From: a virus
Taxonomy: Duplodnaviria; Caudoviricetes
Direction: 5' to 3' (one strand)
Length of the DNA: 64,000 bases
IMG/VR virus record: IMGVR_UViG_3300020576_004352
Span: 1 to 64,000 of that record
Below are positions 3,245 to 5,227 of the stretch, piece by piece. A program made the translations under genes and the position numbers. A model generated the notes under the pieces. It did no database searches and was not told the DNA's origin. It was given only the letters and a program-made list of their open reading frames with translations. Position 1 is the stretch's first letter, and each line of letters begins with the position of its first letter.

Positions 3245-3910
3245 ATGGCACAGATACCGACCGCATACCCGTTGCATTGGCCCCCGAATTATCCGCGCAC
3301 CCGGAGCGTGATAAAGAGCCAATTCAAAACCAGCGTAAGCGGGGCGCTTAAGAACGTGCAGGCTAGCATTGCCGCCTTCAGCAAGGACAGCGGCAAGCAG
3401 GTGAGTGAGCTGACGATTAGCAGTAATTACAGCCTCACTACGCCTTCCCCCAAAGATGCTGGCGTGGCCGTGTATTTCACGTGGGACGGGATCAGCACCT
3501 GCATTGCGGTTGACCGGTATGCCAAGATTGAAGAAAACTTGCAGGCCATTCACCATGTCATAGAAGCCGAGCGGGGAGAGAAGCTTGAGACTGCTCTCCG
3601 GCTTGCACAGGCTGAACTTATGTCCCTGCACGTCCAGTTTGGTGACAAGGACAATGCACTGAAGCACAGCAAGGCCCTGCGGGAGGCCGATAAAGTGCTC
3701 GCGCCAAATCAGCCGGATGAAGAGAAGCTGTGCCCAGTCTGTTACCATCCACCTTGTGATAAATGCCCCACCTGTAAGGACGCTCCGGGTGCGGATGTGT
3801 CACCTTGCAAGACGTGCGGAGGGGCAGAGAACTTTGAGGTTAACTATAAAGGCGTCTGGGAGAAATGCCCGCACTGTAAGGGAACTGGAATAGAGCCTGC
3901 TGACGGGTAG
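3245..3910 (+). CDS. chimeric protein: N-terminal domain of phage J-domain protein family plus Cys-rich zinc-finger tail
   Basis: YPLHWP..YPRT, GVAVYF, DRY...NLQAI..VIEA.RG motifs; C-terminal CKTCGG and CPHCKGTG; no HPD J-domain. Confidence 0.6.
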   Translation: MAQIPTAYPLHWPPNYPRTRSVIKSQFKTSVSGALKNVQASIAAFSKDSGKQVSELTISSNYSLTTPSPKDAGVAVYFTWDGISTCIAVDRYAKIEENLQAIHHVIEAERGEKLETALRLAQAELMSLHVQFGDKDNALKHSKALREADKVLAPNQPDEEKLCPVCYHPPCDKCPTCKDAPGADVSPCKTCGGAENFEVNYKGVWEKCPHCKGTGIEPADG

Positions 3911-4461
3911 TCAGTTGTACGAGACGTGGCACCTTCTTAGCGGGAGTAGGGAGTTGATCGCCCTGAGGCCCGTGACAGAGGCGAAGCGGCTAGGTTGAAC
4001 GGCGTGCCAACTAGTATGCCTAGCGCCCGATCCCAAGGGTAAAACATGTTTCTGCTTGCAAAAGGACGGCTCCAGTAGCCGAAAGACAGGTGTGATACCT
4101 GTTGAGCTGGCCCGGTAGGGAGCTGCGCCTCTACATGGGAGTATGCCGCTGAAAGGTTGGTATCGCAGCACCGAGTGGTGTAACAGAGCACATACCGCAT
4201 AGACCCGTTGCCTTTTCTATCGGTAACCATTCCGATGTTAGGGAAGATGATAGGCGGTAAGGTGGGGGAGAATTGCCCCTCTCGGTTAAAGGTTTCTTAT
4301 TAGGCGGGGGCTTATATATAAGTGCCCTTGCCTATGTGGCCGGTGGAAGCCGGTTACCAGTCTGGCTATGGGTGGTGTAAGGATAACACGACTGGCATCA
4401 CCTCTTGGGGAGGCTGACTAGCTGGTAGATGCGGGGTTCAAACCCCTGCCCCTAGCCGGGC
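3911..4461 (+). ncRNA. candidate large structured ncRNA ending in a tRNA-like domain
   Basis: No credible + strand ORF; many hairpins (3989-4024, 4067-4081, 4086-4102, 4219-4236, 4301-4334, 4336-4357) then D-arm and T-arm. Confidence 0.6.
4360..4461 (+). ncRNA. tRNA-like element with 26-nt expanded anticodon loop and extended acceptor stem
   Basis: D-arm GTGT-AAGGATA-ACAC, T-arm CGGGG-TTCAAAC-CCCTG, flanks GTCTGGCTA/TAGCCGGGC pair; no CCA. Confidence 0.6.
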
Positions 4462-4485
4462 TCACTCTTTCAGAAAGGAAGAACT

Positions 4486-5227
4486 ATGGTTGAAGCATTA
4501 TGTGAAGATGAGGGCTGCCCCCAACACGGCACTCCGCATGTCTGTACCGGAAGCGATAAGAGCGTCACCATATCGCAGGAGCTGCTGGACAAGATGATCG
4601 AGGGCCTTAATGTGTTTCGAGGTGTGCTGCCCAATCGCAAGCACGGGCAGGTCATGACATTGCAGGAGGTATTCACTGCCTTGAAGAACCTGCGGAGCTC
4701 GTGCAATTGATCGGCGTGTTGAAGCAGGTCATGCGGGAGCTTGAGGTATACCGCAATAACCACAAGGTACTCCGGCGGCGGGCTGAAGAGTGGCGCGAGA
4801 CGTTTCCTGAGGACGCTGTGAATTGTGCCATTGAGGCGGAAGGGTGCTACCGCATGACACAGCACCTGCAACGGGCACAGGCTGCGCTTATTGAGGCCGT
4901 GTGCTTTAAGCACAGGAATGAACCGGGGTTCAAAATTGAAGAGGAGCTGCGTAAATGAACAGGCATGACAGGCGTATGGCCGTGGCCAAGGCTCGCAAAG
5001 ACCGCAAGGCGTTTGGCCGCAACTTCAAGACCGGCTACACAGGCCAGAACTTCAAGGTGATGTGTACCTATAACCGCGTGCCGAATTACCTGCTGGGCTG
5101 GACGAATGATCCGCAGGGCGGTAACCTGATGAAACTCGCGGCCATGCACCCTGAGATAACAGATGCTTGTGTCATGCCGGTTACTGATGAAGAACGCCAT
5201 AAAAATATGGGTGGCAAAGTCCACTAA
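4486..5227 (+). CDS. three small overlapping hypothetical ORFs (4486..4710, 4701..4958, 4955..5227)
   Basis: ORF track; AAGGA RBS at the first; ATGA coupling at the third. Confidence 0.55.

Follow-up and report, generated by a model that had tools for sequence, protein, structure and literature searches.

To our knowledge, few bacterial or phage RNAs longer than about 300 nucleotides (nt) have conserved multi-junction folds, namely rRNA, RNase P, transfer-messenger RNA (tmRNA), group I and group II introns, OLE, GOLLD, ROOL, raiA and HEARO. Such large RNAs have repeatedly proved to be ribozymes or unusual assemblies. In vertebrate nuclei, the tRNA-like 3' module of MALAT1-mascRNA and MEN-beta sets the end of a long RNA via RNase P and RNase Z. 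Phage T4 encodes species 1 and 2 (rnaC and rnaD) in its tRNA cluster; these are stable, non-decoding RNAs of about 120 to 140 nt that have tRNA-like features, are co-transcribed and are matured by the host tRNA-processing machinery. GOLLD and ROOL are found near tRNA islands, and GOLLD can have covalently linked tRNAs (bioRxiv 10.1101/2024.12.08.627333); the average length of ROOL is 581 nt (PMC5737381). YrlA RNAs are tRNA mimics of about 100 to 130 nt that are bound by Ro60/Rsr, contain a single module and the motif GNCGAAN0-1G, and lie within about 4 kb of rsr; the tRNA-like module of YrlA from M. smegmatis is cleaved by RNase P and acquires CCA (PMC4201824). Here we describe an element of comparable kind in a tailed phage, located at positions 3911 to 4466 of the first 64,000 nt (hereafter, the window) of IMG/VR record IMGVR_UViG_3300020576_004352. 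We consider it very probable that this element represents a real structured RNA family. It would add to Rfam 15 a family with a readable architecture, consisting of two modules shaped like tRNA, a pair of spacer hairpins and one optional domain.

The element lies in a gap of 575 nt (3911-4485) between the stop codon of the upstream gene (3908-3910) and the next start codon (4486). At an open reading frame (ORF) threshold of 40 amino acids (aa), this is the longest ORF-free stretch on the + strand of the full 87,856-bp record, the runner-up measuring 209 nt, and the original prediction had rightly singled it out on these grounds. The gap is non-coding, because each + strand frame contains 10 to 14 stop codons, the codon-position GC pattern of the flanking genes (GC3 well above GC2) is absent, a six-frame read-through with X at stops retrieved nothing from Pfam or PHROGs, and the two overlapping minus-strand ORFs of 86 and 97 aa at 3911-4230 have no matches and are not preserved. 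These minus-strand ORFs had no Pfam match and no relative among 1.84 billion representative proteins, nor did a minus-strand ORF used as a pseudo-protein probe find a relative in IMG/VR. Their frames are broken in three of the homologous loci described below (L065, L069 and L067), no ORF is kept across copies, and the indels between copies are not multiples of three.

Homologues were found through the downstream 74-aa gene, which led to loci L060/L061, L065, L066, L067, L068, L069 and L064 on Logan and ENA metagenome contigs. In every homologous contig, the stretch directly upstream of the 74-aa gene homologue is a gap with no called gene. Including the window, the family comprises 8 distinct loci (L060/L061 being a single locus), all on metagenomic phage contigs: five long copies of 575 to 590 nt, two short copies and one copy cut by the contig end. 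The homologous gaps align with window positions 3911-4485 over their whole length at 64-75% identity (51-55% for L064), and the long copies L060/L061, L065, L068 and L069 align with the window end to end at 70-75% identity. The short forms, L066 and L067 (304 and 352 nt), start at about window position 4153 and lack the 5' domain. Conserved sequence begins about 3 nt from the upstream stop codon and ends about 20 nt short of the next start codon. Identity among copies is 65-75% in the RNA, compared with 51-57% at third codon positions of the adjacent gene.

Outside these loci, the element was not encountered. A blastn search with the window RNA against 50,697 phage records gave no match, and likewise nothing was found in 3 phage records having the upstream-protein domain or in 12 records related by the large terminase. 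The single-sequence model R1 retrieved nothing from 15 records. Model R2, built from the first tRNA-shaped module alone, retrieved nothing from 14 related virus records and only one 21-bit, chance-level hit from 151 Gemmataceae genomes, and five DNA patterns scanned in IMG/VR yielded no copies. A homologue of the 74-aa gene in L062 is preceded by a Lar gene and no RNA element, and the element is also missing from L063, which lies ahead of a shorter homologue. Judged from these searches, the family of 8 distinct loci appears to be small and restricted to a narrow clade.

Comparison of the copies shows that the element is under selection for base pairing on the + strand. In the alignment of the 3' domain (A5; 8 sequences, 67 pairs in the RNAalifold model), 94.5% of cells form standard pairs, and both sides have changed in 20 of the 67 pairs. 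Column shuffles gave 11.2 +/- 1.9 such pairs and reached 20 in 0 of 500 cases, a control that is not a probability, and slid controls in which partners were shifted by 1 to 3 columns gave 3 to 9. For the 5' domain (A6; 5 sequences from about 3 lineages, assessed by RNAalifold and pair counts), 93.2% of cells are paired, and 14 of 68 pairs have changed on both sides versus 1 or 2 in slid controls. The RNA is placed on the + strand because invariant G-U pairs (e.g., columns 8-144 and 29-37) are compatible with this strand only. The original prediction of a large structured phage RNA, to be given up if no covarying homologues existed, is thus supported by homologue alignments as a conserved, covarying, multi-domain RNA.

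It is this covariation, and not thermodynamics, that provides the proof of structure. Compared with dinucleotide shuffles, the folding energy of the whole region is barely better (z of -1.18 on the + strand and -1.52 on the minus strand), and on this measure the original prediction came close to failing. However, in a scan of 120-nt segments the part at 4300-4460, and only this part, stands out (z of -4.8 and -2.0).

The comparative model is that of a modular RNA, in which an optional 5' domain is followed by a constant 3' half made up of a first tRNA-shaped module (TLS-1), two spacer hairpins and a second, more canonical module (TLS-2). Its features are as follows.

3911 to 4466, + strand: whole element in its long form; about 555 nt conserved inside the 575-nt gap, alignable end to end in long copies
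3911 to 4156, + strand: optional 5' domain, found in 5 of the 7 copies that have their start on the contig and missing from L066 and L067
3925-3947/3966-3988, 3989-3996/4017-4024, 4025-4028/4037-4040 and 4067-4071/4077-4081, + strand: first set of 5' domain helices (A6 model)
4085-4090/4098-4103, 4111-4120/4129-4139 and 4143-4149/4156-4163, + strand: second set of 5' domain helices (A6 model)
4157 to 4298, + strand: TLS-1, first tRNA-shaped four-way junction (A5 covariation, model R2)
4170-4175/4281-4286, + strand: acceptor-like helix of TLS-1, ACCGAG/CUCGGU; an extension at 4159-4164/4291-4296 is unsupported
4178-4181/4188-4191, + strand: D-like arm of TLS-1, a 4-bp stem after a UG connector
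4193-4201/4251-4259, 4211-4215/4240-4244 and 4220-4222/4234-4236, + strand: long covarying arm of TLS-1
4264-4268/4276-4280, + strand: T-like arm of TLS-1, 5 bp with a 7-nt loop, running straight into the acceptor strand
4301 to 4334, + strand: hairpin A, helix 4302-4311/4324-4333, 94% paired, one pair changed on both sides; absent in L064
4336 to 4357, + strand: hairpin B, hypervariable in sequence and length; inverted repeat visible in most copies, not clearly discernible in L064; deleted in L066
4359 to 4462, + strand: TLS-2, second tRNA-shaped module (minimum free energy [MFE] fold, covariation, ARAGORN)
4359-4372/4450-4462, + strand: acceptor-like helix of TLS-2, 13-14 bp with a conserved mismatch and no CCA; a UG connector follows
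4375-4378/4386-4389, + strand: D arm of TLS-2, GUGU-AAGGAUA-ACAC, invariant loop AAGGAUA
4391 to 4426, + strand: long non-decoding arm of TLS-2, hypervariable, 36-66 nt among copies, no 7-nt loop
4431-4436/4444-4449, + strand: T arm of TLS-2, loop UUCAAAC

All hairpins listed in the original prediction coincide with helices of this model. In the 5' domain, GCTAGG/CCTAGC corresponds to 3989-3996/4017-4024, CGGCT/AGCCG to 4067-4071/4077-4081, ACAGGT/ACCTGT to 4085-4090/4098-4103 and the GAAA-capped stem to 4143-4149/4156-4163. Further downstream, ATCGG/CCGAT falls inside 4211-4244, TAGGC/GCCTA is hairpin A (4302-4333) and GTGGCCGG/CCGGTTAC is hairpin B, while the terminal tRNA-like domain proves to be the cloverleaf at 4359-4462. 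Three points had been overlooked, namely the second, more degenerate module TLS-1, the optional nature of the 5' domain and the linkage to the downstream 74-aa gene.

The 5' domain, of about 245 nt, consists of several hairpins and a three-way junction, with a near-invariant core at about 4022-4084. In TLS-1, pairs changed on both sides occur in each of three elements, namely the acceptor-like helix, long arm and T-like arm (A5, 8 sequences), and the variable region of this module measures 4 nt. The tip of hairpin A is a perfect palindrome wherever the hairpin is present, even as its sequence differs (UUAUAUAUAA in the window, UCCAUGGA in the six other copies, L060 and L065-L069); this palindrome could serve self-association through a kissing loop, extend the stem weakly or act as a DNA operator.

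Folded alone, TLS-2 adopts the cloverleaf as its MFE structure in the window and in most of the 8 copies, and its acceptor and T stems covary (A5). The D arm, GGUGGUGUAAGGAUAAC, is nearly invariant, with a single substitution, in L064. ARAGORN reports 4366-4457 as a 92-nt 'tRNA-Val(cac)', in which the anticodon stem is mismatched and the variable arm long. However, the conserved 5-bp anticodon stem and 7-nt loop of tRNA are not present, the arm of TLS-2 folding as an extended stem with an internal loop. Set against the elbow nucleotides of tRNA (U8, A14, G18 G19 and A21; T-loop UUCRA), TLS-2 has UG, GUGU-AAGGAUA-ACAC and UUCAAAC, together with the acceptor mismatch; at position 56 of the T-loop, 4 of the 8 copies have C and the other 4 have A.

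Both modules share the geometry of tRNA: the connector has 2 nt, the D stem 4 bp and a loop of 6-7 nt, the variable region about 4 nt, and the T stem 5 bp and a 7-nt loop, with a direct junction to the acceptor strand. Model R2 scores 123-155 bits on all 8 distinct copies, and with filters off its next-best hit is TLS-2 in 8 of 8 copies (9.8-22.5 bits). As TLS-2 is the second-best hit in every copy, the two modules are built alike, which may reflect an old duplication. Neither can decode, since the long arms lack a 7-nt anticodon loop and no CCA is encoded.

Covariance models of described families did not account for the element. With Rfam 15 at gathering thresholds, the only match in the window was a tRNA at 59198, and a scan of 9 homologous loci gave no family match. 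The Rfam check put forward in the original prediction therefore returned no GOLLD, ROOL, tmRNA or RNase P match to the element. GOLLD (RF02032, gathering score 150 bits) gave no match at E <= 10 in the whole record; neither did ROOL (RF03087, gathering score 99.1 bits), for which the control genomes of the tool contain no example. Since these models do not match, the element is not a GOLLD or ROOL member, and of the earlier suggestion of either a divergent member or a new class only the latter part holds. The tRNA model (RF00005, 29 bits) matched 59198-59267 only and found neither TLS-1 nor TLS-2 at E <= 10. A tmRNA (RF00023, including permuted forms) was detected by neither ARAGORN nor Rfam. 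Moreover, a full cloverleaf is enclosed between the acceptor strands, which are about 100 nt apart, and position 3 pairs A-U or U-U, not G-U as in tmRNA (G3:U70). A resemblance to type A RNase P RNA (RF00010, 100 bits) was dropped as the model found no match at E <= 10 in the record and the short forms lack the 5' 245 nt, a loss that would be fatal for such a fold. Group I and II introns were likewise rejected: the sole hit was a sub-threshold D1-D4 match of 18 bits in L065 (E = 6), the flanking ORFs are complete and unrelated, and the record encodes no reverse transcriptase. We read the element as a new family, not in Rfam 15, and by the tests run not a tRNA, tmRNA, RNase P RNA or intron.

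An attachment site (attP) containing the 3' end of a host tRNA was also considered and rejected. There is no tyrosine integrase in the record, and both acceptor strands are phage-borne. No match of at least 35 nt to the window RNA was found in 401 Planctomycetota genomes, a set that covers the host identity only partly; a 34-nt match in one of them (G181) sits inside a coding region and was dismissed.

The element nevertheless resembles GOLLD and ROOL in being phage-borne and large (575 nt here versus 581 nt for ROOL), in its covariation-backed multi-junction fold and in its tRNA-type link. Like GOLLD, whose 3' part is constant and whose 5' part varies (PMC5737381; bioRxiv 10.1101/2024.12.08.627333), it has a constant 3' half and an optional 5' domain. 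In contrast to both families, whose tRNAs are real and neighbouring or inserted, the tRNA-shaped parts of the present RNA are integral and non-decoding, and just 8 distinct loci are known. It shares with YrlA the absence of decoding, the conserved mimicry of D and T arms and an acceptor-like stem that continues into a longer helix, but measures 300-590 nt with two modules, several times the size of the single-module YrlA. Membership in YrlA was rejected on this ground, on the absence of an Rsr gene and on the motif not being conserved. The 81%-complete record contains no TROVE/Rsr (PF05731) and no RtcB gene, and Rfam YrlA had no hit in the window or homologues. The Rsr motif fits in the window (GGCGAAG, 3980-3986) but not in L060/L068 and L065/L069, which read AUGCGAAG.

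The only hit of a permissive Rfam scan of positions 3700-4700 was to the mascRNA-like model RF01684, over TLS-2 (4364-4457; 17.1 bits, E = 1.9). In both cases, a long non-coding RNA has at its 3' end an element shaped like tRNA. However, as the gathering score is 42.5 bits and the hit falls far short of it, the likeness is one of mechanism only and not homology. A possible bacterial-virus parallel to the 3'-end formation of long RNAs by MALAT1/mascRNA is one reason for interest in the element, and a possible evolutionary path from phage tRNA genes to large structured RNAs is another. T4 species 1 and 2, compared here by description only, are likewise phage-encoded and non-decoding with tRNA-like features; the present element differs in being 4-5 times larger, in having an extra non-tRNA domain and in lying between protein genes and not among real tRNA genes.

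We favor the reading that the element belongs to an undescribed family of large structured phage RNAs in which a co-transcribed tRNA mimic is processed and acts in trans, and we give this reading as a whole even chances. The RNA would probably be made as part of an early polycistronic transcript together with the neighboring genes. Co-transcription is most likely because the upstream stop codon abuts the RNA, a scan of the + strand found no sigma-70-like promoter or intrinsic terminator inside the element, and the next ribosome-binding site lies within about 20 nt; in the short forms, the kinase gene ends where the RNA starts. The conserved 'top halves' of the modules (acceptor/T helix plus D/T elbow) would correspond to the part of tRNA that is read by RNase P, RNase Z and the CCA-adding enzyme, and the tRNA-shaped modules are most likely built-in processing and stabilizing signals. 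The record itself contains no CCA-adding enzyme gene. Processing would free a stable RNA that mimics tRNA and would uncouple the upstream message from the downstream one, and the freed RNA would act in trans, plausibly through binding of a host tRNA-binding factor. For excision by tRNA-processing enzymes and a life as a stable RNA, our judgment is close to balanced, leaning slightly toward doubt. A more elaborate version, in which an ornate RNA built from two tRNA mimics and an accessory domain is released from mRNA by host tRNA-processing enzymes, forms an RNA-only or RNA-protein particle via the kissing loop of hairpin A and captures a host tRNA-binding factor early in infection, is speculative and on balance unlikely.

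Several observations weigh against the favored reading. The Rfam tRNA model matches neither module. A56, present in half of the copies, breaks the canonical G19-C56 elbow pair of TLS-2, and the acceptor-like helix of this module continues for 6-7 bp beyond the point where a tRNA normally ends and contains a conserved internal mismatch, two features that could hinder RNase P. The folding energy of the whole region is unremarkable. With only about 5 to 6 independent lineages among the copies, and about 3 among those used for the 5' domain, the statistics of covariation are modest and a few helices uncertain; in particular, helix 4159-4164/4291-4296 never covaries and in long forms competes with the covarying helix 4143-4149/4156-4163. 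More generally, the known copies are few, and phage and host are uncultured.

Strict adjacency to one gene would also suit a cis-acting leader. In this alternative the RNA would be the 5' untranslated region of the 74-aa gene. Remaining part of the message, the folded RNA would control its translation or stability, for example through binding of the 74-aa protein or of a host tRNA-binding factor, or through masking of the ribosome-binding site. Indeed, in 8 of 8 distinct copies the RNA lies 24-30 nt upstream of the start of a 74-aa gene homologue, whatever precedes the RNA, and a Shine-Dalgarno sequence follows close behind TLS-2. Furthermore, when full-length copies are folded with RNAalifold, the purine-rich ribosome-binding region pairs with the invariant GGUUUCUU (4291-4298). 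However, this pairing amounts to generic pyrimidine-purine complementarity with no clear covariation, and an RNA of 300-590 nt with two four-way junctions is far above the size of known bacterial leaders. The 5' domain is dispensable, the homologous gene in L062 has no RNA ahead of it, and nothing about the 74-aa protein points to RNA binding (it has no family match and a pLDDT of 60). A leader is therefore doubtful.

Alternatively, the RNA could serve as a counter-defense decoy: by imitating host tRNA, its modules would titrate a defense nuclease or sensor that targets tRNA, or would mislead it, and the variable arms would evolve fast under this conflict. This would agree with top halves that are conserved next to anticodon-like arms that are hypervariable in sequence and length. 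Its genomic surroundings also point this way, as the RNA lies in an early accessory region, with Acb3 (PF25187) genes nearby in L060, L065, L068 and L069, a Lar restriction-alleviation gene in its slot in L062 and, in the short forms, an abutting P-loop kinase whose weak best matches are a polynucleotide kinase and a tRNA kinase. However, such support is purely positional, the modules present no anticodon loop to an anticodon nuclease, and the kinase matches are far under the curated cut-offs (17.6 versus 502.8 bits). We consider the decoy unlikely as an explanation in its own right; it can be compatible with the favored reading of a processed, trans-acting tRNA mimic, as the biological role of that RNA.

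A functionless remnant, either a decaying phage tRNA gene cluster or recombination spacer DNA, would explain why both modules are plainly tRNA-derived in shape, as phages gain and lose tRNA genes, and would sit well with the narrow clade and with a folding energy near that of shuffled sequence. However, compensatory changes preserve pairs in nearly every helix, also in those outside the tRNA-like parts, conservation of the RNA exceeds that of synonymous sites in the neighboring gene, and ARAGORN at relaxed thresholds shows no further tRNA ghosts above the genome-wide background, which makes this alternative very improbable. A protein gene in the gap, encoded by the overlapping minus-strand frames or as a small + strand peptide, can practically be dismissed on the coding evidence given above.

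The genes flanking the element have the following coordinates.

3245 to 3910, + strand: upstream gene, 221 aa; N-terminal domain as in J-domain proteins of other phages and prophages, with a CxxC zinc-finger tail found only here
4475 to 4481, + strand: Shine-Dalgarno-like AAGGAAG of the 74-aa gene, read from the sequence, with purine-rich equivalents in all copies
4486 to 4710, + strand: 74-aa gene; Cys/His motif (CEDEGCPQHGTPHVC) and a two-helix C-terminal domain

Homologues of the 74-aa gene with 64-81% identity follow the element in 8 of 8 distinct copies. The protein had no Pfam, PHROG or NCBIfam match; its AlphaFold model has the pLDDT given above, with Atlas scores of <=0.77. The Cys/His motif LCEDEGCPQHGTPHVC (window 4492-4545, residues 3-20) recurs nearly unchanged in the otherwise unrelated small phage proteins P0126-P0130 and is absent from the 54- and 59-aa homologues of the 74-aa protein.

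The upstream genes vary: the 221-aa protein of the window is replaced elsewhere by proteins of 65 or 128 aa, and in two copies by an AAA_33 kinase. The upstream protein of the window is a domain swap. Its residues 1-125 match phrog_9210, which is widespread in phages and prophages and elsewhere is fused to a J domain (PF00226; e.g., in Zavarzinella and Fimbriiglobus), in place of which the window protein has the CxxC-rich zinc-finger tail. Relatives of the upstream gene match residues 1-125 only and have no gap behind them, and the gene is not linked to the RNA. An orphan insertion, as these relatives had suggested, was overturned once homologues of the downstream gene showed the same element.

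The AAA_33 P-loop kinase is encoded near the RNA at 2210-2650 in the window, 5259-5696 in L066 and 2211-2648 in L067, and abuts the RNA in the short forms, where the end of the kinase gene is the start of the RNA. Its weak best NCBIfam matches are to polynucleotide kinase and seryl-tRNA(Sec) kinase. Long-form relatives encode a 219-aa PF25187 (Acb3) protein a few genes upstream of the RNA (L060, 2460-3119; L065, 1234-1893; L068, 572-1231; L069, 418-1077), and no PF25187 gene was found in the window stretch examined. The Lar restriction-alleviation gene of L062 (PF14354; 111-640) lies directly upstream of the 54-aa homologue, and its presence there suggests that the slot of the RNA is an exchangeable accessory or anti-defense position.

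The IMG/VR record is linear and estimated to be 81% complete, and the DNA of the window is also present as a JGI metagenome contig. Assignment to a tailed phage follows from the large terminase, portal and major capsid genes in the record. The closest cultured capsid relatives, at about 50% aa identity, are phages of Aeromonas, Stenotrophomonas, Vibrio, Agrobacterium and Rhizobium, and the host is therefore probably a proteobacterium. These relatives superseded an early guess of a Planctomycetes host, the sole basis of which was one common protein domain.

A second tRNA gene is present at window positions 59197-59269, where the Rfam tRNA model scores 45.3 bits (59198-59267). ARAGORN reports it as 'tRNA-???' with the two-base anticodon '(ga)'. 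In the Rfam alignment its anticodon loop has a deletion, so this phage tRNA may be unusual or defective.

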